Source of the DNA: a virus
Direction: 5' to 3' (one strand)
DNA: 64,000 nt
IMG/VR virus record: IMGVR_UViG_3300024503_000015
Coordinates: 206,182 to 270,181 of that record
Shown piece by piece: positions 39,324 through 64,000 of the stretch (positions are counted from its first letter, which is position 1; every line of letters starts with the position of its first letter). The position numbers were made by a program, and so were the translations under genes. The notes under the pieces are model-generated. The model was not told the DNA's origin and searched no databases. It saw only the letters and a program-made list of their open reading frames with translations.

Positions 39324-39330
39324 ATAATTA

Positions 39331-39406: not shown

Positions 39407-39412
39407 GATATT

Positions 39413-39487: not shown

Positions 39488-39489
39488 AT

Positions 39490-39566: not shown

Positions 39567-39573
39567 TTAAAAT

Positions 39574-39647: not shown

Positions 39648-39873
39648 ACAGATTGAATTTGTAAGTAGTTGCCCCATCGTTATAGCAACCATTCACCCAT
39701 GTATATAAAGCCGGCTGGGACTCGGTACGTCACTTGGGATACTAGTCCAGTTAGCAACCAATCTGCAGGGATCTTCCGATCCCCCGGGAGTTGAACCCGT
39801 CCCCTTTTACTATTAAGGTAGTTCGAACTTACCTACAATAGCGTGACATTCTCTTGCTGACACTTACAAAACT

Positions 39874-39946
39874 TGGTGCCCCAGGATGGAATCGAACCAC
39901 CACACCCTGCTTACAAAACAGGACCTCTACCACTAAGGATACAAGG
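39874..39946 (-). tRNA. tRNA-Thr (TGT)
   Basis: GCCCTTG/CTGGGGC, anticodon CCTGT-TTTGTAA-GCAGG, CCA. Confidence 0.6.
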
Positions 39947-39953
39947 GCAAAAT

Positions 39954-40031
39954 TGGTCTCCACGGTACGATTCGAACGTACAGCCTCCTGACTCCAGATC
40001 AGGCCGTCTACCAGATTGACATTACGCAGAG
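39954..40031 (-). tRNA. tRNA of uncertain identity (loop TCTGGAG, C at position 33)
   Basis: Good acceptor CTCTGCG/CGTGGAG and T-arm GTACG-TTCGAAT-CGTAC with CCA. Anticodon loop is non-canonical. Confidence 0.35.
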
Positions 40032-40041
40032 ATAAAAATAA

Positions 40042-40117
40042 TTGCGACCGAAGGACTCGAACCTTCGCGGTAATCTAGAATGCCCCGGCAAGGCCGGTTA
40101 ACCCACCATTGTCGCAA
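40042..40117 (-). tRNA. tRNA-like element whose anticodon arm is replaced by a 5 bp/3 nt hairpin
   Basis: Perfect acceptor TTGCGAC/GTCGCAA, D-arm and T-arm CGAAGG-TTCGAGT-CCTTCG. Middle CCGGC-CTT-GCCGG hairpin. No CCA. Confidence 0.35.
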
Positions 40118-40120
40118 ATT

Positions 40121-40195
40121 TGGTGGAGGCCGAGGAAATCGAATCCTTCTAGACATCTTCCTTGCAAGGGAAGACCGTAGCCCACTACTGCCCCC
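40121..40195 (-). tRNA. tRNA-Ala-like (TGC) with truncated D-arm and degenerate T-arm
   Basis: Anticodon CTTCC-CTTGCAA-GGAAG, T-loop TTCGATT with a stem mismatch, D region only 12 nt, CCA. Confidence 0.35.
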
Positions 40196-40280
40196 AAATT
40201 GGTGTTAGTTTCTATACCACCCATTGAAACTAACAAACATTGAGAGAACATGGATGAACCCACAAGATCTCTATTTGCTC

Positions 40281-40355
40281 TGGTATAGCGTACGGGGATC
40301 GAACCCGCCTAGTCACCTTGAAAGGGTGATGACCTCCCCAGAAGTCGAACGCTAT
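40281..40355 (-). tRNA. tRNA-Glu (TTC), second copy
   Basis: ATAGCGT/ACGCTAT, anticodon TCACC-CTTTCAA-GGTGA, CCA. Confidence 0.55.
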
Positions 40356-40361
40356 GTAAAT

Positions 40362-40435
40362 TGGTTCCTGGACCGAGAATTGAACTCAGAATGACCGGTT
40401 ATCAGCCGATTGTTATACCATTTAACTATCCAGGA
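40362..40435 (-). tRNA. tRNA-Ile (GAT)
   Basis: TCCTGGA/TCCAGGA, anticodon ATCGG-CTGATAA-CCGGT, CCA. Confidence 0.65.
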
Positions 40436-40617
40436 ATAATACTATACAAAAAGAAACTAACGACAATGCGCTATGCACCCAGAGTCTATAGTTCCTGGCT
40501 GTGGTTAGTTTGTTTTTATACACTACCATATGGAAGCACTCTTATGCCTTTTTCGTCATAAGATGGTGGCCCGTCCTTACTACTGACGCTATGCGACCAG
40601 TTAAGAATGCTTTCATA

Positions 40618-40692
40618 TGGTAGGGGCACAGAGAATCGAACTCTGATTTACGGGTTAAAAGCCCGCTACTTTAACCATTAAGTTATACCCCC
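40618..40692 (-). tRNA. tRNA-Lys (TTT)
   Basis: GGGGGTA/TGCCCCT, anticodon GCGGG-CTTTTAA-CCCGT, CCA. Confidence 0.65.
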
Positions 40693-40695
40693 ATA

Positions 40696-40771
40696 TGGTC
40701 CCTGCTGTGAGATTCGAACTCACACCTCATTGATTAAGAGTCAAGTGCGCTACCATTGACGCTAAACAGGG
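40696..40771 (-). tRNA. tRNA-Lys (CTT), second copy
   Basis: CCCTGTT/AGCAGGG, anticodon loop CTCTTAA, T-arm GTGAG-TTCGAAT-CTCAC, CCA. Confidence 0.5.
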
Positions 40772-40942
40772 TTGTACGTATTGATTTGATTTTACGTGCC
40801 AACCCTAGACCATACGGGAGATCTAGAGTGACACTAACGTTTAGCACGTTTCATGCTACTCTCCTTTTAATATTTTTTCAAAACTTGATACAACACGAAC
40901 ATTATAACTAACACTACAAGTACTGCCATAATATTCTCCTTA

Positions 40943-41032
40943 TGGTCCCCCGTTGAGGAATCGAACCTCATCCTGGACCTTATCTAGATTAATCGGTTAT
41001 AAGCCGACCTGCTCTCCATGAGCTAACGGGGG
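40943..41032 (-). tRNA. type II (long variable arm) tRNA with anticodon TAT
   Basis: Perfect acceptor CCCCCGT/ACGGGGG, anticodon GTCGG-CTTATAA-CCGAT, ~21 nt variable arm, CCA. Confidence 0.45.
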
Positions 41033-41040
41033 ATATAACC

Positions 41041-41118
41041 TGGAGCAACGGGTCAGATTTGAACTGACGGTTTTACGGATTTGCAATCCGTTGCATTGGG
41101 CCTCTCTGCCACCGTTGC
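41041..41118 (-). tRNA. tRNA-Cys (GCA)
   Basis: GCAACGG/CCGTTGC, anticodon ACGGA-TTGCAAA-TCCGT, T-arm GTCAG-TTCAAAT-CTGAC, CCA. Confidence 0.65.
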
Positions 41119-41123
41119 ATTAT

Positions 41124-41198
41124 TGGCGTACCCCCAGGGACTCGAACCCCGACTAGCAGTTTTGGAGACTGTCGTGCTGCCATTAACACTAGGGATAC
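41124..41198 (-). tRNA. tRNA-Trp (CCA)
   Basis: GTATCCC/GGGGTAC, anticodon loop CTCCAAA, CCA. Confidence 0.65.
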
Positions 41199-46321: not shown

Positions 46322-46395
46322 TGGTGCGCTAGACAGGAATCGAACCTGCTATCGGGAGTTTAGAAGTCCCTGCCTATCCATTGAGCTTCAAGCGC
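46322..46395 (-). tRNA. isolated tRNA, best fold gives anticodon CTA (amber-suppressor-like); alternative register TCT
   Basis: Acceptor GCGCTTG/CTAGCGC, T-arm GCAGG-TTCGATT-CCTGT, CCA. Anticodon stem GGGA/TCCC with loop TTCTAAA. Confidence 0.4.
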
Positions 46396-47590: not shown

Positions 47591-48412
47591 TCATTGTGTT
47601 ACCTTAAGAGCGGCATCGACTGCGGCCTTAACAGCGGCATCCAACTGCTCTTGTGTGTAGGCTTCATCCTGGACAGGTGCTTTGAAAGCATCGTCTGGAT
47701 GTACGCCCAATTCACCAATAACTTCGTAGCGGCAAGCACGACCCTTAGACGCATTGTAGTCAGTAGGAATGCTTACAACATCACGTGGATTGATCTTAAG
47801 GATCACTGTACGTTCACCACCAAAGTGGTCCAAGTACTCACGTGAGCAGAAGTGCAGACCAGAACTACAAGTGTTTTCGGCCTTGTCGTCAACTTGGTTG
47901 CGCTCCATTTCAACAATCTGTCCAACAGAGTTATCCATTGTACCACTGTGGCAATCCTTATAGTCCTTACGAACTTTCTTGTATGCCAAGAAGTGACCGT
48001 CATTGGTAATTGGCAAATTACCCTTTTCCAAAAACTTGTACAGTTCTGTAACAGCACGATGACTTGGGTTGCTCATCAAGTTCTCCATAAACTGAACCAT
48101 AGGCTCAATTGGGAAACCATCTTGGTACATAGAAATAATTCTATCTGCCAATGTGTTGTGGAACTCTTGTCCCTTCCAGTAGAACTTGTCTCCTTGGATA
48201 GCGATGTTACCAGCACCATATTCGAGCACAATTTTCTTTGGCTCAATTACTTCCTGTACTGTGTCCCAGTCACCTGTCTTAATTGCTTCTTTGACTTTCT
48301 CATAGGCAATATGAGTAGAAGTAATTGTATGTGGATTGTTGTTAATTACAACAACAATATTTTTGCCTTGAATCAAATATGGAAACATTTTAAACACCTT
48401 TCTGTGTGTCAA
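47591..48412 (-). CDS. rIIB: rIIB lysis-inhibition protein
   Basis: FMENLMSNPSHRAVTELYKF...CSSGLHFCSREYLDHFGG...INPRDVVSIPTDYNASKGRACRYEV parallels the T4 rIIB C-terminal half. Confidence 0.85.
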   Translation of the reverse strand: MTHRKVFKMFPYLIQGKNIVVVINNNPHTITSTHIAYEKVKEAIKTGDWDTVQEVIEPKKIVLEYGAGNIAIQGDKFYWKGQEFHNTLADRIISMYQDGFPIEPMVQFMENLMSNPSHRAVTELYKFLEKGNLPITNDGHFLAYKKVRKDYKDCHSGTMDNSVGQIVEMERNQVDDKAENTCSSGLHFCSREYLDHFGGERTVILKINPRDVVSIPTDYNASKGRACRYEVIGELGVHPDDAFKAPVQDEAYTQEQLDAAVKAAVDAALKVTQ

Positions 48413-50552
48413 TCAAATTAACGTACTCAGCAACTTCATGATTTGGCGCACTACGCAAGTATGCCAACAACGGATAACGCTTACTAATGGTTGCACATTC
48501 ATCAGTAAACTTCTGCACTTGAGCTTCTGGACTAAAGGTTACACCAGGAGCATAACGATTGCACAAACGCTTCAAACTTTGTTCACTGTACTTAATCTTT
48601 TCATAGCCCTTGAACTGTTTTACCAATTCAACATACGGACTATTTTTGTTAGTAACATTAAACATGATGCTTTCATTATACTGCAACAGGTTGAAATTGT
48701 CAACAGCCTGCAATACCAAACTCATAACAAGTTTATTATCAATTGGCTTGCTCAAAACACTAACAATGTGCTCTTCAATGTTGACCCAATTCTTTTGAGT
48801 CTTAATAAACTCAATGTCGCCTTTACGCACACCGTAGATTGTAGTCTTCAAACCAGTTAAACCACAGTCTTTCAAATCGTTGTAAAACTCTTTGACGTTG
48901 CTCATACCATACTTACTTTGAACTTCAAAACCGCTCAAAGGCAAGTAGTAGTAAGTAGTAGCATCATCAAAACTGTCAGCCTTACCAGCATCACGCCAAA
49001 CCATTTCGCGTTCACGATAGTAGCCACCTGTGCCACGTTCTTGCAAACACAAGATTGTAACGTTCTTTGCCAAACCAACTTGACGTTCTTTCTTCGACAA
49101 CGAACTGGCTTTTACAATACGATCCTCTGGAGGATTAGCAATAGCCTTAAAGAACGCCTTAGTGTTCATGACTTTGTCTTTGTTTAATTTATCTAAGACA
49201 AAGACTGTAGCACTATTGTCTGGCTTAGTTTCACGATAGTGGAACTTGGCACGTTCAAGGGCACCGATATTGGTATCATTAACGATAAACTGTACACGGT
49301 CCTCTACAGTAATGCCCCAGTAGGCAAACATATCGTAATGCCCTTGAGCGTTCTTGTTATCACTGTATTGTGTGTCAGCCTTACGGTTAGGATATGCCTT
49401 AGTGTGCTTGGCATAGTTAAAACCTCTGATAACGATGTTGTATTTCTTAGCAAGATCTTCAACACCCATTTTGAAAGTCTTAGTACCGCCGTAACGGCTG
49501 TCATCGAATGTAGACAGGTTAGTGTCTGCTACATACTTCTTAACCGCCGCTTGCCACAAACCATTATGATACTTCTTAGTCAAGAAGATAGCACGATCCC
49601 ACAGGTTAGGAATAGCATCTGCTTCTTTGGCTACGTGAACAGCCAACTGAGCATTTACTGCCTCTAACTTGCGCTTGATGGCATCTACAGTCTGAGGAAT
49701 GTATGACAAACCTTCACGGCTTGCTTGGAAGTCTAATTCGCCAATAGCAAAGTGCATTTCCAAACCACAGTTCAACAACAGGCGCAATTCGCCCATAGCC
49801 TGTTCTGTGTTAGGAACATCTATAGGATAGGCAATATTGCCCATGATGGCTACAGCACGACGGTGTCCGTCTGTGTATGAGTGAACGCCTGGAATGATAT
49901 CCTTAGCATCATATTCTACATCACGGAAACGGAAGTCGCTGACACCGCTGATAACTGGGCGCAGAGCAAAATAAGTGTAGACATATCGTGCTTCTTCTTG
50001 GAACTTACTAAAGTCCCAACGGTCACTGACTGAGAATTTAACTTCGACACCGTCGGGTTCGCTGGTTTGTTCTTCACCCATCTTGGCAATACTAGGCACA
50101 CCTGCTTCGTTAATAAAAGCAGAGTAAACACCTTTAACGCCGTCTTTGATTGCGGTTACCGTGAAGTTATCTGTATAACTAAAAGGACTCTTAGAACCCA
50201 AACCTAATGCGCCGATAAAATCGTTGCTGTTGGTCTTAGTACTTTCAAAGTATGTGGTATAGATGTTTGTAACTTGTTCGTGGCTCAAACCAGTACCATA
50301 GTCACGAATACTAAACCAAGGTTCCAATTGGTTGGGCAAGTGTACATCAAAAGGAGTATCTTGTTTGCCTGCGGCAGTATGGCTATCTACTGCGTTACAA
50401 CTCAGTTCACGGATGATAGCACGGATCTTGTTAGCATACAAGCCTGAACTCAAAATGTTAAATGCCTTAGCAGAGTTGCGAATACGGAACTCGCCCACTT
50501 CACTTACATTACTCAAAATTGCTTCGTTTTGCGGAGCATTGTTAATAATCAT
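48390..50552 (-). CDS. rIIA: rIIA protein (GHKL ATPase-like N-terminus)
   Basis: Start trimmed to MIINN. AKAFNILSSGLYANKIRAIIRELSCNAVDS, DYGTGLSH and GALGLGSKSPFSYTD match the T4 rIIA N-terminus. Confidence 0.85.
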   Translation of the reverse strand: MIINNAPQNEAILSNVSEVGEFRIRNSAKAFNILSSGLYANKIRAIIRELSCNAVDSHTAAGKQDTPFDVHLPNQLEPWFSIRDYGTGLSHEQVTNIYTTYFESTKTNSNDFIGALGLGSKSPFSYTDNFTVTAIKDGVKGVYSAFINEAGVPSIAKMGEEQTSEPDGVEVKFSVSDRWDFSKFQEEARYVYTYFALRPVISGVSDFRFRDVEYDAKDIIPGVHSYTDGHRRAVAIMGNIAYPIDVPNTEQAMGELRLLLNCGLEMHFAIGELDFQASREGLSYIPQTVDAIKRKLEAVNAQLAVHVAKEADAIPNLWDRAIFLTKKYHNGLWQAAVKKYVADTNLSTFDDSRYGGTKTFKMGVEDLAKKYNIVIRGFNYAKHTKAYPNRKADTQYSDNKNAQGHYDMFAYWGITVEDRVQFIVNDTNIGALERAKFHYRETKPDNSATVFVLDKLNKDKVMNTKAFFKAIANPPEDRIVKASSLSKKERQVGLAKNVTILCLQERGTGGYYREREMVWRDAGKADSFDDATTYYYLPLSGFEVQSKYGMSNVKEFYNDLKDCGLTGLKTTIYGVRKGDIEFIKTQKNWVNIEEHIVSVLSKPIDNKLVMSLVLQAVDNFNLLQYNESIMFNVTNKNSPYVELVKQFKGYEKIKYSEQSLKRLCNRYAPGVTFSPEAQVQKFTDECATISKRYPLLAYLRSAPNHEVAEYVNLIDTQKGV

Positions 50553-50660
50553 CTTTAGCCTTTCTGCGCCTAGTTGTTTACTGTATGTGTATATTATAGC
50601 AAATGAACTGTGGTCTGTCAACTGTCGATGAGTCCAAAATATGAACCCATCGACACAAGA

Positions 50661-52027: not shown

Positions 52028-52104
52028 GTGATCTTTCTATGAAATAAAACTGCGATACTGTGTATTATAGGCTCGGACAGGGCATCTGTCAATGTGTTTG
52101 GTAA

Positions 52105-52135
52105 AATAAAAAAGGGCCCGAAGGCCCTTTGGTTG
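52105..52135 (-). terminator. rho-independent terminator (second copy of GGGCCCGAAGGCCC hairpin)
   Basis: Hairpin followed by TTTTTTATTTT on the minus strand. Confidence 0.55.
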
Positions 52136-52395
52136 TTTGGGTTACAAGGTAAGTCCTACCCCGGAGTTGCAGTTTCTTAGGCTGCTACTAGACCATTGTC
52201 GGCTGTGAAGCCTTCAACAGTGAAGTACTCAAATGTAGATGCGTTTGCATTTACTAGTTTTGCTTGATTTACGGTCATCGCCTACCGTGTTGCCGTCTCT
52301 ACTATCTACCCCTGTCGAAACCATGGCAGGCCCATCATAAAAACACAATACCAAAGTAAATTTACAATGAATACCAAAGTAAATTTATGTCCTTA

Positions 52396-52435
52396 TGGTG
52401 GACCTGGCGGGAGTCGAACCCGCGTCCAGAAGTCC
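52396..52435 (-). other. tRNA 3'-half-like minihelix (T-arm + acceptor + CCA) lacking D and anticodon arms
   Basis: GCGGG-TTCGACT-CCCGC T-arm, then CAGGTCC-A-CCA, with a complementary GGACTTC only 5 nt upstream. Confidence 0.3.
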
Positions 52436-52463
52436 TTCGCTTTGAAGGGATTACAACAATTCT

Positions 52464-53042
52464 TTAAACGCCTGCCTTTGCTAATGTGCCAAATATCCAA
52501 GGTTTTGGATCTAAGTCAATTGTCCAAGATGTCGGTTCATTTCTCATATCTTTTTTGTACACAATATTTATTTGGTCGTGTGTTAGTTTGACTAAGAAGC
52601 CGTCTGTTAATTGTTTTAGATTAGCCTTAACTGTTGCGTAATCTACAAAGGCAACAGCGAATGTTCCTTTAATTTGGACTATCATTAAATGATTAAAAAC
52701 TTTGTCTAGTGTAGTTCTTTGATTCTTACTTTCGTAAACATTTTTTAATTTAAGACTGATTGTCTTTTTAGGAGTTCCTGACTTTGCGTAGAACAAAGGT
52801 TCGTTGCCAGTTTTAACTTCTACGTCGCCATTGGTCCAATCGGTAAATTTTATATCGTAATCGCGAACGTCAGTCCACTCGATGTTCTTTTTATGATTAG
52901 ATAATTGCATTGCCGCAATAATGAATTTTTCTTTCATCATTCGATTTGTGGATTCATTTAATACTGTCTGATGACAGATGTTATTACAAGCATCTGAAAA
53001 CTTGTCAATATCTACCCAATCTAAAAATTCATTGTACTGCAT
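52464..53042 (-). CDS. hypothetical protein
   Basis: 192 aa ORF. Confidence 0.5.
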   Translation of the reverse strand: MQYNEFLDWVDIDKFSDACNNICHQTVLNESTNRMMKEKFIIAAMQLSNHKKNIEWTDVRDYDIKFTDWTNGDVEVKTGNEPLFYAKSGTPKKTISLKLKNVYESKNQRTTLDKVFNHLMIVQIKGTFAVAFVDYATVKANLKQLTDGFLVKLTHDQINIVYKKDMRNEPTSWTIDLDPKPWIFGTLAKAGV

Positions 53043-53521: not shown

Positions 53522-53901
53522 TGTGCTACTTCCTCTTTTGCTGGCTCTTCTGCCGGTGCTTCTGTATTTACTTCAGGCTTAGGAGCTCTTGCTTCAAATC
53601 CACTGAGTAAGTTGGCTCTTGCAGTTTGGACTATTGTATCTAATTCTGCATCACTAACACGACCTCTAGTAAATTCTTTTAGTACATCAGCAAAGGCCGC
53701 CCCAACTACTGCGGCAATATCTGCTACTGTACCAATTGGCTTGCCTTCATTATGTTTTACTAATACTGCGGTTCTGCCATAGATGAAATGCTGAATGTCG
53801 CGATCCAATGTTACTAGTACATCTGGTGTAGGATCGTTCATTAACTCCTTGAGCATATGAGCGAATGTTGCTACATCGCGTTTGATTTCTTTTTTATCCA
53901 T
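53518..53901 (-). CDS. hypothetical protein
   Basis: 127 aa ORF. Confidence 0.45.
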   Translation of the reverse strand: MDKKEIKRDVATFAHMLKELMNDPTPDVLVTLDRDIQHFIYGRTAVLVKHNEGKPIGTVADIAAVVGAAFADVLKEFTRGRVSDAELDTIVQTARANLLSGFEARAPKPEVNTEAPAEEPAKEEVAQ

Positions 53902-54101
53902 TACTTACCTGCGGATTCTTTACGTTCGTTCTTTACTGCGGTTACATCGTTACGAACTTCTTTACATAGTTTGGCTAACTCTTGTAAGTGCTTGCGAACA
54001 CGAGTACCTGCGGCATTAACACCCTTGTCATAGAACTTTTCAAAGTCACCTTCTGCGGCTTCGATTAGTTTTGAAAAATCTTGAAATCTGTTTGTTGCCA
54101 T
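53901..54101 (-). CDS. small hypothetical protein
   Basis: Trimmed to the internal ATG preceded by GGAG (MATNRFQDFSKLIEAAEG...). Confidence 0.4.
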   Translation of the reverse strand: MATNRFQDFSKLIEAAEGDFEKFYDKGVNAAGTRVRKHLQELAKLCKEVRNDVTAVKNERKESAGK

Positions 54102-54291
54102 AATGTTTCTCCTTGTTATTATGTTTATTACTTTTAGCCAACTTGGCTGGGCTTTTCTGGCCGTGTAGTACAGAATTGACACTCTGGATCCTTGCACGGT
54201 TCTTCTAGCCACTTATTACACAACTCGCAAAAATACGCATCGTACTTGTTGCTATATTGTTTCTCACTTTCACAGACAGGACACTTATAAC

Positions 54292-55266: not shown

Positions 55267-55830
55267 CTATACTATATGATCCGCTACCCCAAAGTCAACC
55301 ACTTCTTGTGCAGTTAGGTAAACATCGCTGGCTGGTAGTAGTTTTGCTTTAACTCTACTTTTAACCAAGCCTGTTGTTTCGGTTAGAATTGTTATCATCT
55401 TTTCATTTAACAATTCGGTTTCTTTCATTTCTGCTTTTAGGTCGTGATACTTAGCATCCATTCCGGATGTAAATTGGTGACACATAAAACTAGTATTACT
55501 AGCCGCATAACGATGCTTTTTATCACCGCAGGCAAAAATTAAAAATGCCGCACTCATGACAGCACCAATTCCAATAGTTCTTACAATATGTGGACTGCTA
55601 CGCATTACATCAATTAACGCTAGAGCCTGATACAAATCTCCGCCCGTGCTGTTAATATACAAGGTCAAAGTTCTACCTTCGCCTTGTAAATTTTCATAGA
55701 GAATCCATTTGATGGCTTCGCCTACTGTATCTTCATCTATCTCTCCATTCAAATAAAAAGTAGAATTTTCCAGTAATCTAAGATCAATTCTATCTTCCGC
55801 ATTGAACTCATCAATTTTTTTCATTTTCAC
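55267..55830 (-). CDS. divergent ClpP-like serine protease (second Clp paralog)
   Basis: Clp-fold motifs INSTGGDLYQALALIDV, Ser in GAVMSAAF and His in FMCHQF. Diverged from canonical ClpP. Confidence 0.6.
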   Translation of the reverse strand: MKMKKIDEFNAEDRIDLRLLENSTFYLNGEIDEDTVGEAIKWILYENLQGEGRTLTLYINSTGGDLYQALALIDVMRSSPHIVRTIGIGAVMSAAFLIFACGDKKHRYAASNTSFMCHQFTSGMDAKYHDLKAEMKETELLNEKMITILTETTGLVKSRVKAKLLPASDVYLTAQEVVDFGVADHIV

Positions 55831-56114: not shown

Positions 56115-56220
56115 GATTCCTTACTTTATTAAGTGCTACTATTATAACACATTTATTTAACCTGTCAAATACTTATCTACTCAGTTAACATAAATACACG
56201 TATAAAGAGCGGAGCGTAAA

Positions 56221-56502
56221 ATGGGTGATATATTCAAAATAATTGGTGATTTGGGTATGCCGGTAGCGGCGGCATTGGCAGGTGGATACTTTGTTTACCT
56301 AACAATCAAATTACTACTACAAGGTGTTTTGGGAAGTATCAAAGGTATGGCCGGTATTATTACTGCGTTAGACAATCGTGTAAAAACAATGAACCACGAT
56401 GTTGTACGTATTGATACTATTGTGTCCAACGCATTAGGTTTACGCCCTGACGTAGATCGTATTGCTAGAGCAGATGGTAAGAACGATGCTAGACGAGACT
56501 AA
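56221..56502 (+). CDS. small membrane protein (holin-like topology)
   Basis: 93 aa with two hydrophobic helices and a charged C-terminus. CATAAATA motif ~25 nt upstream. Confidence 0.4.
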   Translation: MGDIFKIIGDLGMPVAAALAGGYFVYLTIKLLLQGVLGSIKGMAGIITALDNRVKTMNHDVVRIDTIVSNALGLRPDVDRIARADGKNDARRD

Positions 56503-56656
56503 TACAAAATTACAAGATGCAATTATAACGTTGCATGACATAGCCAGACTAATTGAACAAGAAGTTGGCCGAGGTAACCTTAGTGACGATATTAGAAACT
56601 GTGCTAATAGAGTCAATGTATTGATTAAGGAAAGAGTCGAAAATGCTGTATGTTGA
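56462..56656 (+). CDS. small hypothetical protein
   Basis: 64 aa ORF overlapping its neighbours in the plus-strand block. Confidence 0.3.
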   Translation: MLEQMVRTMLDETNTKLQDAIITLHDIARLIEQEVGRGNLSDDIRNCANRVNVLIKERVENAVC

Positions 56657-56840
56657 TTACAGTTGGGATTTAAATCCTAGCGGTATCATATTCGATGAAG
56701 AACTTGATATTGATAAGTTAGGTTGGAAGCACGGCGATTGCTTTAGAATTACCAACGTTAATGGTAAGGCAATGCTGGTTAAAATGCACCCAGTAGAGCA
56801 ATTTGTAAAAGGATACCCAGTAAATGTTCAAGAAGAATAA
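56643..56840 (+). CDS. small hypothetical protein
   Basis: 65 aa ORF. Confidence 0.3.
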   Translation: MLYVDYSWDLNPSGIIFDEELDIDKLGWKHGDCFRITNVNGKAMLVKMHPVEQFVKGYPVNVQEE

Positions 56841-56924
56841 ATGGCAGTTGTGGTATGATGCACAACCCCAACACATCAAAGATTGGATGGATCAGCCAAG
56901 AGCAATTTGGTATGACAGCGATAT

Positions 56925-57359
56925 GTGGAAGGCTGGCATTACTGGATTAGTTGTTGGTTTAATAATAGGGATGATTATATAATGGATGTCGTAGAGTTAG
57001 TCAATAAGTATGGGTTTCCAATCGTTATGGCGGTTGGTATGGGTTTCATTATCAAATACGTTTGGGAATGGGCCACAAAAGAAGTTAAGCCAGTTATCAG
57101 CGATGCTAATACTGTGTTGATTGCTCTTATCGACCGTATCCGTATGCTAGACAATGACTTGATTCGTCTTAACCAAAAAGTTAATACAGTCTTACACCTA
57201 CGTGGTAAGATGATTGAATCGGATCGTGTTATGGAAACTGCACTTGTAGAAGCACAGGCTAACAAGAAGTTCCACGAAGCAATGGAAGAAGCAGACAAGA
57301 TTGGCGCAAAGAAAGTTGACCCGGACGATAAAAAGACTGCGGCCGCTGGCGAGAGTTAA
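56925..57359 (+). CDS. membrane-anchored coiled-coil protein (i-spanin-like topology)
   Basis: N-terminal transmembrane helix FPIVMAVGMGFII, then coiled coil. Real start probably the internal MDVVEL. Confidence 0.4.
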   Translation: MEGWHYWISCWFNNRDDYIMDVVELVNKYGFPIVMAVGMGFIIKYVWEWATKEVKPVISDANTVLIALIDRIRMLDNDLIRLNQKVNTVLHLRGKMIESDRVMETALVEAQANKKFHEAMEEADKIGAKKVDPDDKKTAAAGES

Positions 57360-57361
57360 TA

Positions 57362-58066
57362 ATGTCAACAATTATAGCCACCTTGGTGATGGTTCAAATC
57401 ACCATAGCCTGTGTTACCCTTTATCTTCATAGAGGACAAACACACAGAGCAGTAACATTCCATCCAGCAGTAAATCACTTCATGCGTTTTTGGCTTTGGC
57501 TTACAACAGGTATGGTTACCAAGCAATGGGTAGCAATACATCGCAAACATCATCAAGCCAGCGATACAGATTTAGATCCGCACAGTCCACAAGTTTACGG
57601 TATTAAAACTGTGCTATTCAAAGGCTGGAGTTTATATCACTCTGCCAGTAAAGATACCGCAATGGTTGAAAAGTTAGGAGTAGGTACTCCTGATGATTGG
57701 CTAGAGCGTAATGTTTACACCCTACACAGCCGCCTTGGAATTCTCTTAATGTTAGTCATAGACTTATTGTTCTTTGGTCCTTGGGGTATTCTTGTGTGGG
57801 GCATTCAAATGATATGGATTCCATTCTGGGCCGCTGGTGTTATTAATGGACTGGCACATTGGTGGGGATATCGTAATACTGACACCAAAGACACTAGCCG
57901 TAACTTATGGCCTTGGGCTATTTGGATCGGTGGTGAGGAACTACATAACAATCATCATGCCGATGGGGCCAATGCTAGTTTCCGTCAACGTTGGTTTGAA
58001 TTAGATATCGGTTGGATCTATATTAAGGTACTACGCTTCTTTAACCTTGCACAGGTTAGGAATTAA
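57362..58066 (+). CDS. membrane fatty-acid (acyl-CoA/acyl-lipid delta-9-like) desaturase
   Basis: Three His boxes HRGQTH, HRKHH and HNNHH, with multiple transmembrane helices. Confidence 0.8.
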   Translation: MSTIIATLVMVQITIACVTLYLHRGQTHRAVTFHPAVNHFMRFWLWLTTGMVTKQWVAIHRKHHQASDTDLDPHSPQVYGIKTVLFKGWSLYHSASKDTAMVEKLGVGTPDDWLERNVYTLHSRLGILLMLVIDLLFFGPWGILVWGIQMIWIPFWAAGVINGLAHWWGYRNTDTKDTSRNLWPWAIWIGGEELHNNHHADGANASFRQRWFELDIGWIYIKVLRFFNLAQVRN

Positions 58067-58805
58067 CAGCAATAAACTCTGCTTCAGGAATACGTGTCTT
58101 AGTATTCTTACTTCCTAGTACTACTACAATTCTGCGTCCTATTTCTGTATCCAACATCATTACTATGCAACCTCCACTGGCTCTTATGTAGCCAGTTTTG
58201 CTGACAATAAATTCATGACGCTTGCCAATAATTGGATTAGTATTATTAAAGATAAACCACTTTTTCTTTATCTTAATTTTAACCTGCGGTGTGCGTGATG
58301 CTTCAATAATCTCTGCGTAGTTCTTTGCCGCTAGAACTAGTTTAATTAAATCAGTGGCTGTGCTTACATTAAACACACTAAGCCCTGTAGGTTCGACATA
58401 CTTTGTGTCGTGCATACCTAACAGATGTGCTTTAGTATTCATTGCTCTAACACAGGCATCCTTACCATTAGGATAGTATTGACACAGTAGATCAGCCGCT
58501 TTGTTGTCGCTGTGTACTAATGCTAGTTGTATTGTTTCGGCTCGGGTATACTTACCGATTTGTTCATCTAAGTTTTGATTAGCATCTAACACAACCATTG
58601 CCGTCATTAGTTTAGTAATGCTGGCAATACTACGCTGTTGATCTATGTTTTCGCTTTGAATAATTCTGCCGGATTCATCGGCCACGAGCCAGCTCTGAGC
58701 GGTGATAGACAGAGGTTTGGCAGTGGCGGCGCTTGTTTGCCCATGATGTAAAAAGGCAAAAAATACCAATATAGATATAACTCTACACATCTGTCTATTG
58801 TACAC
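58056..58805 (-). CDS. D-alanyl-D-alanine carboxypeptidase (S11, PBP5/DacA-like) with signal peptide
   Basis: SITK (SxxK), SDN and KTG motifs. N-terminal signal peptide. Confidence 0.8.
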   Translation of the reverse strand: MYNRQMCRVISILVFFAFLHHGQTSAATAKPLSITAQSWLVADESGRIIQSENIDQQRSIASITKLMTAMVVLDANQNLDEQIGKYTRAETIQLALVHSDNKAADLLCQYYPNGKDACVRAMNTKAHLLGMHDTKYVEPTGLSVFNVSTATDLIKLVLAAKNYAEIIEASRTPQVKIKIKKKWFIFNNTNPIIGKRHEFIVSKTGYIRASGGCIVMMLDTEIGRRIVVVLGSKNTKTRIPEAEFIAVNS

Positions 58806-58826
58806 TCTGCTATAATCTCTGTCAAA

Positions 58827-60878
58827 TTATTTTTCATGTGCTATGAATTCACCATTCCAATTATCTGGAAGGTTCTGTTCTTTCATAAACTCGCAACGTT
58901 CAATCCAGATTTTGTAGTACTTGTCCATTTGTCCACCAAAGTTGCCTTTTAGTTTTTTACACATAGCGGCTGCTTCGTCGAACTTCTTTTGTTTATACAA
59001 GGCATGCATCAACTCGTGCTGTACTTTATCTTTACTGTAATCTTCACCTTTGGTTCTTAATGCTGTATAGATTAAGTCTGCTACAGTTTTGCCTTTAGGT
59101 TGTAAGTTATCTAGCATTAGATAGAAGAAGTCATCTTTAGTACGGTTGTAAGTTTCAGCACCGATGATACATAACACGCCATAGGCCTTACAACGTGCTT
59201 CTAAACGAGCGGCGGTTGAAACCATGTCACCTAAGATGTCGTAACTATGTCTGTCAGTTGATCCCATCTCACCAATAAAGCCAATACCTGAGTTACAACC
59301 CCAACCCATTGCGGCTGGTGGTAAGCCTTGTGCTTCCATTAGTTTAGTATACTCATCAACAGCATCTAACATCTGTAAACCAACAGCAACAATAGTACGG
59401 GCATGATTAGGATCTTCAATCGGAGCACCGTGTATGTGCATACTTGCGTCACCTACATACTTTATGACCATACCCTTGTTGTCCATGATAGGCTGACTAA
59501 TAGCATCCATGTAACCGTTCATATACTTGCCTAATCCAGCAACATCATCACCGTAGTGTTCTCCAATGGGTGTAAAGCCACGCAAGTCACTGAACATAAC
59601 GGATACGTCTTTACGCACACCACGCTTGATTAGGTCTGGATCTTTTTGTAGCATTTCTACTACTTCCTTACTACAGTATCCAGCGAACTGTTTCTTAATT
59701 GCCTGTTTCTGTAAAAACTCGCTTATAAACTTAACGCCATAACAATGAAGAGCAACGATAATAAGGCCAAACGCGATCGCAGTCGCGTCTCCCAAGACGA
59801 GCCAATTATTGAAAGCGTAGATAGTACCAGGAACGATGGCACCAACAATAACCACAGTAGCACCAATGCCAACATAAGTCCACCTCGATAAGAAAATTAA
59901 TAATATGCCAAGTGATACTAATGCTAAAATTTCAACCCCGTCGGCATAGTCGGGACGTTGAATAACAATGCCGTTAACCATTGTACCAATTACTGCGGCC
60001 TGCACTTCGTGAGGAAATACAGCACCTTTGCTTGTCGGTAACGGATTACTAATACCAGCGGCAGTAGGACCTACAATAACGACGGCGCCACCTAAATCTT
60101 TTGGAAGTTTAACAGCACTAACGCTATGAGCTTCTTGGCTCCAATCGATCCAAATTCTTCCTAAACTATCTGTAGCAATAGGACCAAACTTTGGAATACG
60201 CATTTTCTCAACGCCGCCTTCAAAAAGTTTTACTTGGAAGGTAGAGTCTCCTGCGGCGACTCTAAGTGTCTCTAAACTCAATGCTGGATATAATTTGCCG
60301 TCTACAGTAACAATTAACGGCATGCGGCGATTAACACCATCTACTTCTGGAAGTGTTCCTGTAATGCCAACACCTGCGGCATTTTGTTCTAGTTGAGGAA
60401 CGTTGGCGATTAGTCCCGGGTATTGAATAATTTGATCTAGATGTTCTGGACCTAGTACAGCCGATCCTGGAACACGTGGTGTATTCTTTGTTTTCTGTGC
60501 TGGCGCACTTCCTAGTACTACAGGGAACTCTTTTAGAGTTTGTCCTAGCGCACCATCTCCACCAGTACGATCTGTCTCTGGCATAAGAACATTAAGTACA
60601 ACAAGTCCTGCATTTCTTTGGTATAGTTCCTTCACAAGTTTAGCATATTCTGCTCTTGGTAAGGGCCACTGACCATATTTGTCTAACGTGGCTTCGTCGA
60701 TATTTACAGTAACTATGTTGTTAACTGTAACTTCTTTACTTGTAATTAATGTGTCAAAATAACGTAGTCTTACGCTTTCAACAAATGTAGGATCTGCAAC
60801 TCTGACACCAACAACTAGTGCTAGAGTTAGTAAAGCAGTCCATGGACTTACTAGTATTTTTTTGAATTGTATTTTCAT
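58827..60878 (-). CDS. CHASE2 sensor domain fused to class III adenylate/guanylate cyclase
   Basis: N-terminal transmembrane plus periplasmic CHASE2-like region and further transmembrane helices. Cyclase core FSDLRGFTPIGE...GDASMHIHG. Extra C-terminal ~100 aa. Confidence 0.8.
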   Translation of the reverse strand: MKIQFKKILVSPWTALLTLALVVGVRVADPTFVESVRLRYFDTLITSKEVTVNNIVTVNIDEATLDKYGQWPLPRAEYAKLVKELYQRNAGLVVLNVLMPETDRTGGDGALGQTLKEFPVVLGSAPAQKTKNTPRVPGSAVLGPEHLDQIIQYPGLIANVPQLEQNAAGVGITGTLPEVDGVNRRMPLIVTVDGKLYPALSLETLRVAAGDSTFQVKLFEGGVEKMRIPKFGPIATDSLGRIWIDWSQEAHSVSAVKLPKDLGGAVVIVGPTAAGISNPLPTSKGAVFPHEVQAAVIGTMVNGIVIQRPDYADGVEILALVSLGILLIFLSRWTYVGIGATVVIVGAIVPGTIYAFNNWLVLGDATAIAFGLIIVALHCYGVKFISEFLQKQAIKKQFAGYCSKEVVEMLQKDPDLIKRGVRKDVSVMFSDLRGFTPIGEHYGDDVAGLGKYMNGYMDAISQPIMDNKGMVIKYVGDASMHIHGAPIEDPNHARTIVAVGLQMLDAVDEYTKLMEAQGLPPAAMGWGCNSGIGFIGEMGSTDRHSYDILGDMVSTAARLEARCKAYGVLCIIGAETYNRTKDDFFYLMLDNLQPKGKTVADLIYTALRTKGEDYSKDKVQHELMHALYKQKKFDEAAAMCKKLKGNFGGQMDKYYKIWIERCEFMKEQNLPDNWNGEFIAHEK

Positions 60879-61411
60879 TTTTTAAATCCTGGCTTTGGTA
60901 AGTGGTTGCGGCCGTAACTAATTCTACTGCCTATAATTTGTTCTAATGCTGTATGTAAGGCTTGTCCTGATAAATGTTTACGCAACCATTTTTCTGCTAA
61001 GTTGTTAATAATCTTTTCATTAGCGTGTGCAAAGCCGCCTTTACTTTTAGCGTGTACATAAGCGTGATATGCTTCGTGGGCCGCAACAGCAACGTCTCGT
61101 GCCGCGGTGCTGTCTAGATTTGGTAAGTTGATACTGCCAACGCCGTCGCCTGTATCCCTAAACATTGGATCTCCGCTACTCTGGTAGACATAATACATTC
61201 CAGGACCTAATTCGTCATCATCGTCAGTTACTCTATCTCTACCTAGAATATTTCTAACTACATCATATGCTGTCCAAAGCGTGGCTGCAGGTTCTCTGCT
61301 TAATTTTGTAGTTGGAAGCATTATTTTATCTTCAGGATCGAAGTCACCATATCTTGCTTTTAAATCGGCGTCACTTGCTTCTGCTTCTTTTATAAATTCT
61401 TTTGCTCTCAT
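60875..61411 (-). CDS. putative HExxH zinc metallopeptidase
   Basis: AAHEAYHAYVH motif. Start trimmed to MRAKEF. Confidence 0.4.
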   Translation of the reverse strand: MRAKEFIKEAEASDADLKARYGDFDPEDKIMLPTTKLSREPAATLWTAYDVVRNILGRDRVTDDDDELGPGMYYVYQSSGDPMFRDTGDGVGSINLPNLDSTAARDVAVAAHEAYHAYVHAKSKGGFAHANEKIINNLAEKWLRKHLSGQALHTALEQIIGSRISYGRNHLPKPGFKK

Positions 61412-61569
61412 GATCTTGGTGCCGCGCCGTTTCGAGTAGCAGGATCCCATGAGTGGCAACCCTTGGGTCGTCCGTCTTTGTCGCAAAATGCTATTCCGGC
61501 GCAGCCTGCTAAGGTTGTAATAATTGCTAATATTAAGATGTTTTTCAGCATCCAATATTTAGTTAGATT

Positions 61570-63963
61570 TTATTGGCGAACAACTGTGCTACAACCCGCT
61601 GGATTTGTACAACTTTGAATGATGCTAAATGATTTGCCGCCTGTTTGTTGCAGGTCAACACTGGCTGGGCCACCTGCGTTAGTTACATCAATAACTGCTC
61701 TGTTAGCAGTATTTCCTGTTTGTGTCACTAGTGCTGAGTTGTTATTTCCTGTTAGTGTAATATCAGCGAAATGGCCAGCACCGCCAGACTGTGTAGTGTT
61801 TACAGTATTAATATCGCCTGTAACTTTACTGAACAATATGTGATTACCGGTTTGTGTATGATTTACAGTATTACCATTTCCTTGTATTTTAGTTTCAGCA
61901 TAATTTGAACCACTAGCATTTGACTGATTAGTAGTTATGTTATTGCCCCACCCAGGCACTTCTTGCTTTAAGTAGTTACTGCCAGTTTGAGTATTATTAA
62001 CAATATTGTTGTTTCCTTCTAAGGTAAATTCGATTTTGTTCTTAGTACCACTTTGTGTAATAGTTACATTATTGTTAGTACCGTATGTTTGTGTGATGTA
62101 CAATTCGTTATTGTAGTTTTGTGTACCGTTGTTCCAAGTATTAATTCTAGTTTGTTTAACATCTATATCTGCTGGAGGAACGTATGAGCCACCGCTACCT
62201 ATAACTTGATCACCAGGCGCATTTGTTTGTGTAATTGTTCCACCTTCAACTACTGGTCCTAATAAAACTGTTGTACCCGACACGTCAACTACTGCGCTGT
62301 TAGAATAAACAAATCCACTAGTGTCAATTGTATTTGTTTCAGTAATCCACCCTGTAGTAAATGCAGAGTTAGGTACGTTCATACGGCCTGCACCGTAGTC
62401 CCATTGAAAACGTAGTCCATAGCCGCCGGTGTCGTTCCAGTACCATGCTTCAAAATTATAAGTCTGTCCTGCTACTATGTCTATCCAGCCAGACGCTGTA
62501 TAGCCACCTATACTCTGAAGTTGGAATGTAGATCTATCGTTGATAACTGTTTGTCCGTTTACACTCATAACAAATCCGTCATCGCTGTTGCTATAGAAGT
62601 ATAATCTATATACAGTACCTGCAGGATAATTTTGTGTCGTCGGAGCAGTAATCGTTCCGTTGAATCTAACTAAGGTACCAGTGTCCATATTTGGAAAACT
62701 GCCGTTAGTCGGAACATAAACTCCGTTACTAGTTGTACCAATACTAACAGGCTGTCCACCAGGTGGCATATCAGGTACACGATATGGCCCTAACCAGTTT
62801 TTAATACAACCTAACCAACCGCAGTTATAAGTGTAAGGATCGAATTTGTAGACTTTATAGTTTAATCCCTGCTGTATGTTTTGTGTTGTAGTTGTTGCTG
62901 TGCCGTTTGCTTCTATGGTGCTGCCATTAACGCCGGTTGTAGTAACTGTATTAATTGGTGTTGTAGTTGTTGTCAGAACACCGTTTACAATTTTTGTAGT
63001 TACTACGTTAGACGCAACCTTAGTTTGATATACTGCTTCAGTACCATTTGTACTTGTGCTAGTTCCGTCGCTGTAAGTTGTTGTAGTTACAGGTGTGCGA
63101 TAAACAGTAGTTGTATTACCATTAACCACAGTTCTAGTTGTATAAGTTACACTAGTTCCTGTTACTGTAGGAGTCGGAGCAGGAGCCGCACCGGCAGTTG
63201 CGCCCGTGCCAGCATTGGTCACTGACATTGTGTTATTATATCCACCAGCAGTACCACTAGTAGTACCACCAGTAGCACTAGGGCCGCCACCGTTAGCGTT
63301 AGCAACTAAGCCAACTGTACTCGAACCAGGCACTCCATCGCTGTTAACGATACAGGCATTTGATCCGCCCCATGCACCTTGACAAGCACCGAACCCTGGA
63401 TTTGATACCCAACCTTGTGCTGTTATATTATTATAAGGCCCAAACTCCGGGTTATACAATAAGTTGCCGCCGCCATTAAGTTGGAATGTAGGAGCACGAT
63501 ACCAAGGACCATAATCACCTGCCCAGTAACTTCCATCAATACCGTACATACTGACTGTGGCATAGGCTACTTGGCTTGCTTGTGCCGCAGTAAGCGTTGC
63601 ACTGATAGTTACTGTAGTCCAAGGTACCGCAGTATCAATACAAGGATTACCACACACAGCATTTGGGTTTGGTAAGTTAGCAGAGTTAGTTGAGTTTACG
63701 CTAGTGATTAATCCACCACTGCTGTTATAGAACTGTATCTTTACGTTAGCCGTATCACTTTGTCCTGCACGGCCGCCGCCGTTGTGTGCTAGTACACTCA
63801 TTGTAAATGTACCGCCTTGTTGCATATTACTATCAAACACTACTTGTTGACTAATTGTAGTAGTAACATAAGCAGTAGCAATAGCATTATAAGTCACAGC
63901 CTGACTATGTGCGCTAATGCACACAGTTAAAAACACAAGGAACTGTAATAAACGTTTTATCAT
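61570..63963 (-). CDS. secreted PA14-domain protein, Thr/Gly/Asn-rich
   Basis: Signal peptide MIKRLLQFLVFLTVCISAHSQA. PA14-like block GTVYRLYFYSNSDDGFVMSVNGQTVINDRS...GLRFQWDYG. Confidence 0.6.
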   Translation of the reverse strand: MIKRLLQFLVFLTVCISAHSQAVTYNAIATAYVTTTISQQVVFDSNMQQGGTFTMSVLAHNGGGRAGQSDTANVKIQFYNSSGGLITSVNSTNSANLPNPNAVCGNPCIDTAVPWTTVTISATLTAAQASQVAYATVSMYGIDGSYWAGDYGPWYRAPTFQLNGGGNLLYNPEFGPYNNITAQGWVSNPGFGACQGAWGGSNACIVNSDGVPGSSTVGLVANANGGGPSATGGTTSGTAGGYNNTMSVTNAGTGATAGAAPAPTPTVTGTSVTYTTRTVVNGNTTTVYRTPVTTTTYSDGTSTSTNGTEAVYQTKVASNVVTTKIVNGVLTTTTTPINTVTTTGVNGSTIEANGTATTTTQNIQQGLNYKVYKFDPYTYNCGWLGCIKNWLGPYRVPDMPPGGQPVSIGTTSNGVYVPTNGSFPNMDTGTLVRFNGTITAPTTQNYPAGTVYRLYFYSNSDDGFVMSVNGQTVINDRSTFQLQSIGGYTASGWIDIVAGQTYNFEAWYWNDTGGYGLRFQWDYGAGRMNVPNSAFTTGWITETNTIDTSGFVYSNSAVVDVSGTTVLLGPVVEGGTITQTNAPGDQVIGSGGSYVPPADIDVKQTRINTWNNGTQNYNNELYITQTYGTNNNVTITQSGTKNKIEFTLEGNNNIVNNTQTGSNYLKQEVPGWGNNITTNQSNASGSNYAETKIQGNGNTVNHTQTGNHILFSKVTGDINTVNTTQSGGAGHFADITLTGNNNSALVTQTGNTANRAVIDVTNAGGPASVDLQQTGGKSFSIIQSCTNPAGCSTVVRQ

Positions 63964-64000
63964 TTTTGTATCAAGATAATAATAGTATTACCTCCCTGAT

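Follow-up and report, generated by a model that had tools for sequence, protein, structure and literature searches.

The final 8 kb of a 64,000-nucleotide stretch of viral DNA (IMG/VR record IMGVR_UViG_3300024503_000015, positions 206,182 to 270,181; this whole stretch is the window, and positions are given in its coordinates) contain a cluster of envelope and signaling genes at 56221-63963, and this region is very probably the distal half of the viral type VIII secretion system (T8SS)-FecR-adenylate cyclase module (Wittmers et al., 2022; PMC9599517). What the region holds is a largely known module, truncated by the window edge, together with ordinary cargo genes. We consider it probable, if with some reserve, that late in infection the module displays lectin-bearing curli fibres on the host cell, joined to sensing through FecR, a CHASE2 receptor cyclase and cyclic AMP (cAMP), with facultative cargo alongside. 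The module core has been described before; added here are a lectin head on one fibre subunit, a small lipoprotein, a co-varying Asp/Ser pair in the cyclase, putative late transcription units and the cargo genes. The features are listed in Table 1.

The open reading frame (ORF) listing gives minus-strand genes until 56114, a plus-strand block at 56221-58066 and minus-strand genes from 58056 to the window end, with a GC content of 0.38-0.42 that is flat over the region and its junction. A first interpretation made from the letters of the window (the sequence-only reading) had noticed this strand switch in the last 8 kb, correctly, since the plus block sits between minus-strand genes, and had taken the genes for one co-acting island bounded by the window, which they are not: the region is the 3' half of an operon that continues past the window end. 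A scan of viral contigs returned 503 cyclase relatives, 80 loci were retained for comparison, and gene distribution was scored by tblastn of all region genes against these 80 loci. An exact-cyclase lookup covered 57 collection blocks, and 23 contigs were read (2 displayed and 21 similar places). Two contigs, L002 (85 kb) and L003 (78 kb), carry every region gene at 100% identity, and 5' of the gene for a 797-aa secreted protein they encode, in turn, FecR, a 324-aa curlin-repeat protein, CsgG with an SH3 domain, CsgF and a Bax1-I/YccA-like protein. CsgG (Pfam, 1.2e-46) and CsgF (1.8e-7) thus lie outside the window, on the same strand as the 797-aa gene; the 324-aa protein scores 5e-4 and 20.4 bits against Curlin_rpt, just below the cutoff of 20.7, with repeats that are visible, and the FecR protein carries a signal peptide. 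The window edge therefore cuts a larger operon, csgF-csgG-curlin-FecR-curlin/PA14-lipoprotein-(HExxH)-cyclase.

In full, the first unit runs csgF, csgG(SH3), 324-aa curlin, FecR, 797-aa protein, lipoprotein, zincin-like protein, cyclase and a PBP7-like endopeptidase, with 4-nt overlaps at the FecR/797-aa, lipoprotein/HExxH and HExxH/cyclase junctions. The second, convergent unit consists of two membrane proteins of PHROG 18771 (sm93 and sm125), three small ORFs and a DesA-type desaturase. Across the 80 loci, the conserved core comprises CsgF, CsgG, a curlin protein, FecR, a variable protein and the cyclase, with sm125, the 65-aa ORF and sm93 convergent to it, and the order in which curlin genes flank FecR and are followed by the adenylate cyclase is kept in about 60 loci. 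The phage CsgG (L002:3576-4745) has a C-terminal bacterial SH3 domain (SH3_4, 1e-7; SH3_3, 5e-6), which canonical CsgG lacks and which may bind peptidoglycan. Directly 5' of csgF lies the Bax1-I/YccA-family membrane protein, of the FtsH-modulator/Bax-inhibitor type (L002:2229-2918; also in L079).

CsgF and CsgG, together with unknown partners, were reported in pelagimyophages (Zaragoza-Solas et al., 2020; PMC7029224), and a viral module HK-CsgF-CsgG-CsgA/B-FecR-CsgA/B-AC (HK, histidine kinase; AC, adenylate cyclase) was shown to have an ocean-wide distribution and metatranscriptome expression (Wittmers et al., 2022). The present locus shares its gene content and gene order with this pelagiphage T8SS (CsgF, CsgG, curlin, FecR, curlin, CHASE2 cyclase), and has small genes that probably correspond to the 1-2 'HK' genes there. 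It differs in that the small-gene unit is inverted and convergent rather than 5' of csgF, the second subunit is a 797-aa protein with a PA14 head and a stalk, a lipoprotein, a zincin, an S11 peptidase and a desaturase are added, the 'HK' genes lack kinase domains and the backbone is not that of a pelagiphage. Megablast against cultured phages gave no match, and blastn found only the cyclase gene of four Melnitz isolates, at about 71% identity. Genes gp97-gp104 of the Methylophilales (OM43) phage Melnitz (MZ577097) form the closest cultured relative of the module, with a cyclase protein that is 45-46% identical; Melnitz shares the small membrane-protein pair, CsgF, CsgG, two curlin-repeat proteins and FecR, but has all genes on one strand with the cyclase last, a second curlin of 339 aa, and a cluster without lipoprotein, HExxH protein, S11 peptidase or desaturase.

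Bacterial curli systems (CsgBAC/CsgDEFG; CsgA structures 8c50 and 8enq) share the CsgG and CsgF Pfam hits with the phage locus, whereas CsgE, CsgC and CsgD are absent here, one subunit bears some 600 aa of folded cargo at its N terminus, CsgG has the C-terminal SH3 domain, and regulation would run via FecR and the CHASE2 cyclase rather than CsgD. A LysM-FecR protein and a CHASE2 histidine kinase occur together in a biofilm-regulating operon of Burkholderia (PMC5192318). That operon shares with the phage module a FecR protein near a membrane CHASE2 sensor and a surface or biofilm context, and the phage module differs from it in its cyclase output, the lack of a response regulator, a FecR without LysM and the separation of the two genes by a fibre-subunit gene. 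The three phage papers cited (PMC7029224, PMC9004378 and PMC9599517) and text searches did not yield the lectin-curlin fusion, the anchor swap described below, the mini-lipoprotein, the co-varying Asp/Ser site, late units with TAAATA motifs, the lack of kinase domains in the 'HK' proteins, or S11, desaturase and zincin cargo at this site.

The reading as surface display is carried mainly by the 797-aa protein. An AlphaFold model (30 homologues, pLDDT 71.5) shows a signal peptide, a β-sandwich at residues ~26-207, a disordered linker, a Thr-rich β-hairpin stalk (~267-362), a PA14 β-sandwich (~365-540), a second linker and a β-solenoid (~609-797), in which curlin repeats of the CsgA kind number about seven. 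By sequence, the last 180 residues match CsgA structure 8c50 (1.4e-6). Some 600 aa of folded domains precede the repeats, whereas in CsgA and CsgB, of ~130-150 aa, an N-terminal CsgG-targeting segment stands directly before them. In Foldseek, the middle domain resembles the PA14 lectin domains of MpIBP, Flo5, Epa1 and RsgI. Pfam PA14 (PF07691) does not match the 797-aa protein itself at E≤10, and matches six of the 30 aligned homologues (best 2.3e-8); the sequence-only reading had called it a secreted PA14 protein, and the modelled fold, the Foldseek matches and these homologue hits bear the call out. Residues D461-D462 are invariant among the aligned homologues and presumably sit at the Ca2+/sugar site of PA14 lectins (the DcisD motif). 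Compared with known PA14 adhesins (Marinomonas MpIBP, yeast Flo5 and Epa1), the anchor here is a curlin domain and not an RTX, glycosylphosphatidylinositol or cell-wall anchor.

Furthermore, the head of the protein at this gene position is exchangeable, and so, in at least one relative, is its anchor. Some homologues have an F5/8-type-C domain in place of PA14, and the proteins found there range from repeats-only forms of 190-235 aa (e.g., 198 aa) up to ~1100 aa. In locus L010 (L010:7124-9175), an autotransporter β-domain (Pfam, 6.7e-13) replaces the curlin repeats, which indicates that in at least one relative a type V secretion system anchor has taken the place of the T8SS anchor. In L020, L039, L048 and L055, the corresponding proteins have the aromatic final residue typical of autotransporters and no match to Pfam Autotransporter. 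Separately, F5/8-type-C heads were seen in two scanned proteins at the 797-aa position. Together, the exchangeable heads and exchangeable outer-membrane anchors point to a surface-displayed adhesin, which is the strongest argument for display over a pore, and this head and anchor variation suggests that surface display is the selected function.

We propose that, late in infection, CsgG and CsgF would be exported by Sec and form an outer-membrane channel, and the 324-aa subunit would polymerise into a β-solenoid fibre. The 797-aa protein would co-assemble via its C-terminal curlin repeats and hold a Ca-dependent, sugar-binding PA14 head on a Thr-rich stalk at the infected-cell surface. The benefit would likely lie in the masking or occupation of surface glycans, with the exclusion of other phages and protection of progeny from debris; alternatively, it could lie in the adhesion of cells and particles to one another. 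FecR, the small lipoprotein and CHASE2 would provide a periplasmic sensing route with cAMP made by the cyclase as its output, and the endopeptidase, desaturase and zincin would be add-ons and not part of the core.

The same channel could be pictured as a device for import or permeability, in which CsgGF, un-gated for want of CsgE, would admit small solutes or cofactors, the FecR-CHASE2 cyclase chain would report on this, and the curlins would be secondary. Such a role has been discussed (Zaragoza-Solas et al., 2020; Wittmers et al., 2022), csgE is indeed absent, and FecR-type proteins are classically tied to transport signalling. We judge it highly improbable, since it leaves the conserved fibre subunits, the lectin heads and the autotransporter swap unexplained, and the FecR protein here has a signal peptide in a cluster with neither a sigma/anti-sigma partner nor a TonB-dependent receptor.

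The cyclase was aligned with solved cyclases, with 82 phage homologues and with 140 wider-family sequences (the window protein plus 139 cluster representatives). It is built of a transmembrane (TM) segment, a periplasmic CHASE2 domain of ~280 aa, three further TM segments, the cyclase domain and a helical tail of ~80 aa, with the CHASE2 match at residues 18-325 and hydrophobic segments at 7-33 and 310-386. Its closest solved relatives are Cya2 and CyaB (1e-15 to 1e-20), and these matches, together with Pfam, agree with the earlier assignment as a CHASE2-domain class III cyclase. Of the six canonical catalytic residues, five are kept. The metal ligands are D431 (82 of 82 phage sequences) and D477 (81 of 82, with one gap), both Asp in all 140 wider-family sequences; R558 is conserved in essentially all aligned sequences, and K473 is Lys in 82/82 phage and 137/140 wider-family proteins. 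The sixth residue, the transition-state Asn found in 131 of the 140 wider-family sequences, is replaced by Ser554, which is invariant in the phage clade. Position 547, mostly Ser or Thr in the wider family, is Asp in the phage clade, where it is likewise invariant, and Asp547 and Ser554 co-vary perfectly, occurring in the same six of the 140 sequences. The same Asp/Ser pair is present in the cluster representatives P0248 and P0304, two more distant CHASE2 cyclases of ~32-40% identity.

In class III cyclases, a Lys/Asp pair goes with ATP as substrate, and the K473/D547 pair of the phage protein accordingly predicts ATP. In mammalian cyclases, mutating the transition-state Asn strongly lowers kcat. 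The conservation of Ser554 throughout the phage clade argues against decay, and the sequence-only reading, which would have been undermined by a cyclase lacking its catalytic residues, is here faced with a conserved, though unusual, catalytic set. A role in cyclase-based (Pycsar) defence was considered and rejected: the PADLOC PycC model (best 1.4e-13) covers the generic cyclase domain, and no effector model matched.

Between the 797-aa gene and the cyclase lie two small genes. The sequence-only reading had an HExxH protein here; the motif is real, but the 226-aa ORF that bore it was over-extended, being an artefact of a TTG start whose first 48 codons carry stops in relatives, and the true genes are one of 178 aa and one, in another frame, for a 47-aa lipoprotein. 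The lipoprotein reads MLKNILILAIITTLAGC followed by CAGIAFCDKDGRPKGCHSWDPAT, with a mature form of ~31 aa, three Cys residues (two beyond the lipobox) and a WDPAT motif. Its gene stands directly 5' of the cyclase in the six loci named in Table 1, and in further loci this position is taken by lipobox-bearing ORFs of 46-73 aa. In several relatives, the lipoprotein is translationally coupled to the cyclase. A role for it in the outer membrane as an RcsF- or NlpE-like sensor partner is speculation. The 178-aa protein has no signal peptide and keeps H112, E113, H116 and N131-E132-K133 invariant; it is plausibly a small metallopeptidase, and its gene is found in about 9 of the 80 loci. The heptapeptide MRAKEFI starts both this protein and a 517-aa protein encoded 5' of the module (L002:527-2080), and MRATEFI starts a 124-aa cargo protein (L005:12820-13194); a relationship between the HExxH protein and the 517-aa protein was rejected, only these first seven residues being common.

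The two units appear to share their timing. The T4 late promoter TATAAATA has TAAATA as its core. In a survey of 55 distinct sm93 and 38 csgF upstream regions and of the internal genes, TAAATA occurs within -50 to -10, at 20-40 nt 5' of the start codon, in 51 of the sm93 and 34 of the csgF regions, and in only 0-3 regions upstream of each internal gene. In the window, TAAATA also stands before tail-fibre and structural genes. The exact promoter TATAAATA has four matches in the window, which is not above chance; only the shorter core is positionally conserved. A similar leader, GGGAGCGAA, follows TAAATA in the sm93 and csgF upstream regions. From the motif we infer two late units, csgF→cyclase→peptidase and sm93→sm125→desaturase. 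Just 5' of the start codon, a conserved leader, CCGGGAGCGAA, is common to both units (loci L004-L083) and may serve to control the two jointly, in translation or at the RNA level. Scans for sigma-70 promoters and terminators gave counts equal to those in shuffled sequence, save for one perfect consensus promoter facing away. This promoter (56141-56168, minus strand; TTGACA, 16 nt, TG-TATAAT, 12/12) faces the orf95-ClpP genes and shares the divergent intergenic region with the late-type motif of sm93.

Several points weigh against the late display of lectin-bearing fibres. The fibres on infected cells are predicted from genes, as the promoters are from a motif. Melnitz cultures were without clumping (Buchholz et al., 2022; PMC9004378). 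The module lacks CsgE and CsgC, and the narrow CsgG channel may not admit a 797-aa protein with folded domains, whose match to Pfam Curlin_rpt is itself marginal (21.5 against a cutoff of 20.7). The absence of the canonical transition-state Asn leaves the activity or the product of the cyclase uncertain, and PHROG 18771, to which sm93 and sm125 belong, is a family of unknown function. A bolder form of the display reading, which we regard as unlikely, has a modular late lectin display with an exchangeable curli or autotransporter anchor and PA14 or discoidin heads for the glycans of hosts or competitors, coupled to a lipoprotein-FecR-CHASE2 chain and to a cyclase whose clade-specific Asp547/Ser554 site would give it altered chemistry, with either a different nucleotide product or a strict dependence on activation. 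If that were true, the viral T8SS, rather than a pore or a biofilm relic, would amount to an adhesin or a means of masking receptors that is programmable and has second-messenger feedback of its own.

The remaining enzymes lie at the junction of the two convergent units, where the distance from the cyclase to sm125, scored in 71 loci, varies from 7 bp to 5.4 kb. The S11 peptidase has the motifs S62-I-T-K, S99-D-N and K203-T-G, kept in 24 of 24 distinct homologues. Its closest structures are DD-endopeptidases (6azi, 4e-38; 6muq, 5e-36), and PRK11669 (PbpG) in NCBIfam, at 176 bits against a cutoff of 294, is its closest relative and not an equivalog; the DacA, DacC and DacD models cover only residues ~8-75, with 33-51 bits against cutoffs of 610-765. 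With Escherichia coli PBP7 (PbpG) it shares the S11 fold and the SxxK, SxN and KTG motifs, but remains below the equivalog cutoff. The peptidase had been described as a PBP5-like DD-carboxypeptidase; the S11 assignment and the SxxK, SDN and KTG motifs are sound, and the protein is of the PBP7/PbpG type, without the C-terminal domain of PBP5.

The desaturase aligns HRGQTH, HRKHH, NGLAH and HNNHH to the iron ligands of mouse SCD1 (4ymk), with the motifs kept in 20-21 of 21 homologues, and this alignment of the His boxes and of an Asn/His ligand, with the Pfam match, confirms the three-His-box desaturase of the sequence-only reading. Its score against NCBIfam DesA_fam_desat is 397.4 bits, with a cutoff of 400, over profile positions 10-240 of 385. 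Pseudomonas aeruginosa DesA and mammalian SCD1 are thus the closest relatives, sharing the His boxes and the Asn/His ligands, whereas the protein here lacks roughly the last third of the DesA profile.

The peptidase is found in 32 of the 71 loci, always on the cyclase strand and immediately downstream of the cyclase, and the desaturase in 25 of the 71, always on the small-gene strand and after sm125. Elsewhere the same slot holds genes that look, from a reading of their sequences, like isocitrate lyase, amidotransferase-like proteins, glycosyltransferases, LpxH-like, radical-SAM and Rieske proteins. Wherever the peptidase, the desaturase and the HExxH protein occur, their catalytic motifs are conserved, and their patchy presence marks all three as facultative cargo rather than core.

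It is in light of this distribution that the model of the sequence-only reading has to be weighed, namely a self-contained island in which desaturase, DD-peptidase, cyclase, HExxH protein and PA14 protein would jointly rewire lipids, cell wall and cyclic-nucleotide signalling. Its five domain calls are real: domain searches matched FA_desaturase, Peptidase_S11, CHASE2 and Guanylate_cyc in Pfam, the catalytic motifs are intact, and the genes are, as it said, envelope and second-messenger genes of bacterial type. The fixed places of peptidase and desaturase speak for it as well, and the SH3 domain of CsgG and the LysM domain of bacterial FecR partners hint at a theme of peptidoglycan. However, three of the five supposed partners are facultative cargo in variable slots, with the HExxH protein in so few loci and unrelated genes in the same slot elsewhere, and a comparison of boundaries among relatives places the true conserved partners, CsgF, CsgG, FecR and curlin, outside the supposed island. 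We therefore consider joint action of this kind very unlikely.

Within the plus-strand unit, sm93 is the orthologue of Melnitz gp97 (55% identity) and is 70-100% identical across related loci, and sm125 is the orthologue of gp98 and present in about 75 of the 80 loci. The pair lies 5' of csgF on the same strand in Melnitz and in L061, and is convergent in this phage, two arrangements in which it travels with the module. From its position in Melnitz we infer that the pair corresponds to the small 'HK' genes of the literature, and neither protein has a kinase domain (HisKA, HATPase_c) in Pfam at E≤10 or a kinase match in NCBIfam. Searches of Pfam, NCBIfam and PHROGs with the small ORFs, the HExxH protein and the 47-aa lipoprotein gave nothing informative apart from PHROG 18771, and the proteins at 56474-56656 and 56643-56840 have no family match in Pfam or PHROGs.

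These small proteins bear on a further interpretation, proposed for Melnitz, in which csgA and csgB were said to be lacking: that the module forms a pore that times lysis (Buchholz et al., 2022; the text does not discuss FecR and the cyclase). Transferred to the present locus, it would comprise a gated CsgGF pore, holin- or i-spanin-like small proteins, the lipoprotein as o-spanin and a DD-endopeptidase weakening the wall, and the sequence-only reading had likewise seen holin- and spanin-like proteins and a possible drive to lysis. It is consistent with the build of the small proteins (an N-terminal TM segment and a helical region), the o-spanin size of the 47-aa, Cys- and Pro-containing lipoprotein, the late-type promoter motif and an encoded peptidoglycan endopeptidase, and it has the standing of a published hypothesis. 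The sole holin signal, though, is a PHROG match of sm125 at E=0.008 over 20 residues, which is not significant, and there is no significant match to a holin or spanin. The o-spanin-like lipoprotein gene lies 4 kb from the putative i-spanin genes and on the opposite strand, neither next to them nor within them, and is absent from Melnitz; the endopeptidase is missing from more than half of the loci; Pfam and PHROGs show no endolysin in the region; and complete fibre subunits with lectin heads would be pointless for a pore. On these grounds, we find a lysis-timing device unlikely, and continue to prefer the display of lectin-bearing fibres.

The bacterial type of the genes, and nine hits in metagenome-assembled genomes (MAGs), might suggest that the end of the window stems from the host, from a prophage junction or from chimeric assembly, a possibility that the sequence-only reading had named as its own weak point and that is practically nil. 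When the cyclase alignment was run against 185,579 species genomes of bacteria and archaea, only nine MAG contigs of 0.7-36 kb, most of them short, came up, and no bacterial source of the phage clade was identified; spread over five unrelated phyla or orders, these contigs suggest mis-binned phage DNA. The GC content is flat, the same gene order recurs in the 23 contigs read, with phage genes on both sides, and the module is also found in 80 IMG/VR contigs and in two cultured phage types. Both host origin and a chimera are thus excluded, and the phage genes that flank the module in long contigs mark a genuine phage genome.

As to the kind of phage, the window encodes 32 tRNA genes, a permuted transfer-messenger RNA (tmRNA), rIIA, DNA ligase, and baseplate and fibre genes. 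Its rIIA (48390-50621, minus strand) has its nearest relative in the 385-kb jumbo phage XacN1, and other proteins of the window are closest to T4-like cyanophages or PA5oct-like jumbo phages, so that the earlier label 'T4-like' holds only loosely. Among cultured phages, only Melnitz and HTVC008M carry the CHASE2 cyclase, and the module alone links the window to them. Some module-bearing IMG/VR contigs (L010, L020, L064 and L076) span 300-360 kb. Together, the XacN1-like rIIA, these long contigs and the many tRNAs suggest that the source may be a jumbo myovirus, rather than a 140-kb phage like Melnitz.

Other features of the window were seen in passing. An array of 31 tRNAs lies at 33542-41198 (minus strand), and a tRNA with the amber-reading anticodon CTA (ARAGORN: Pyl) at 46322-46395 (minus strand). 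The permuted tmRNA (52086-52488, minus strand) has the tag ANASTFEYFTVEGFTADNGLVAA, and Melnitz also has a tmRNA. Near the region are a small Hc1 protein (chlamydial histone H1-like, PF07432) at 53901-54212 (minus strand) and, immediately upstream of the Hc1 gene, a ClpP-family protease (55267-55830, minus strand).

Table 1. Features of the region and its edges, in window coordinates
Feature	Position	Strand	Evidence or remark
TAAATA motif, T4-late-promoter-like	56191..56196	+	25 nt 5' of sm93; GGAGCG ribosome-binding leader follows
sm93, 93 aa, single-pass (TM ~15-33), C-terminal helical	56221..56502	+	PHROG 18771 paralogue A, 1e-29
Small soluble helical protein, 56-64 aa by start codon	56474..56656	+	Homologue in ~15/80 loci
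65-aa soluble protein	56643..56840	+	46-75% identity in ~60 loci
52-aa protein, C-terminal TM 34-52	56824..56982	+	In ~25 loci
sm125, 125 aa, membrane-anchored, helical	56982..57359	+	PHROG 18771 paralogue B, 1e-28
Compact DesA-family, SCD1-like fatty-acid desaturase, 234 aa	57362..58066	+	Pfam FA_desaturase 2.7e-14
Secreted S11 penicillin-binding peptidase, 244-249 aa	58056..58790 (ORF to 58805)	-	Pfam Peptidase_S11 1.6e-40
CHASE2 receptor-type class III adenylate cyclase	58827..60878	-	Pfam CHASE2 7.2e-37, Guanylate_cyc 7.9e-14
Cytoplasmic HExxH protein, 178 aa, zincin-like fold, accessory	60875..61411	-	Stop overlaps cyclase start by 4 nt
47-aa lipoprotein gene, lipobox LAGC	61408..61551	-	In-frame conservation in L005, L006, L009, L013, L014, L032
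Secreted lectin-curlin fusion, 797 aa	61570..63963	-	Signal peptide, AlphaFold domains, curlin repeats
FecR-domain periplasmic protein, 3' end (41 nt)	63960..64000	-	Pfam FecR 3e-09; cut by window end

Phage curli genes have been a puzzle since the annotation of HTVC008M, with proposals that range from lysis pores to 'sibling capture'. The locus described here and its relatives suggest what the system exports, a fibre subunit with a sugar-binding head. Lineages differ in this head, and at least one relative differs in the anchor as well, a pattern typical of adhesins that act at the surface and evolve under diversifying selection. The clade of CHASE2 cyclases with its conserved Asn-to-Ser change offers a defined biochemical target. 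With at least 503 viral contigs carrying the module, what it does is probably of consequence for the infection of abundant aquatic bacteria.

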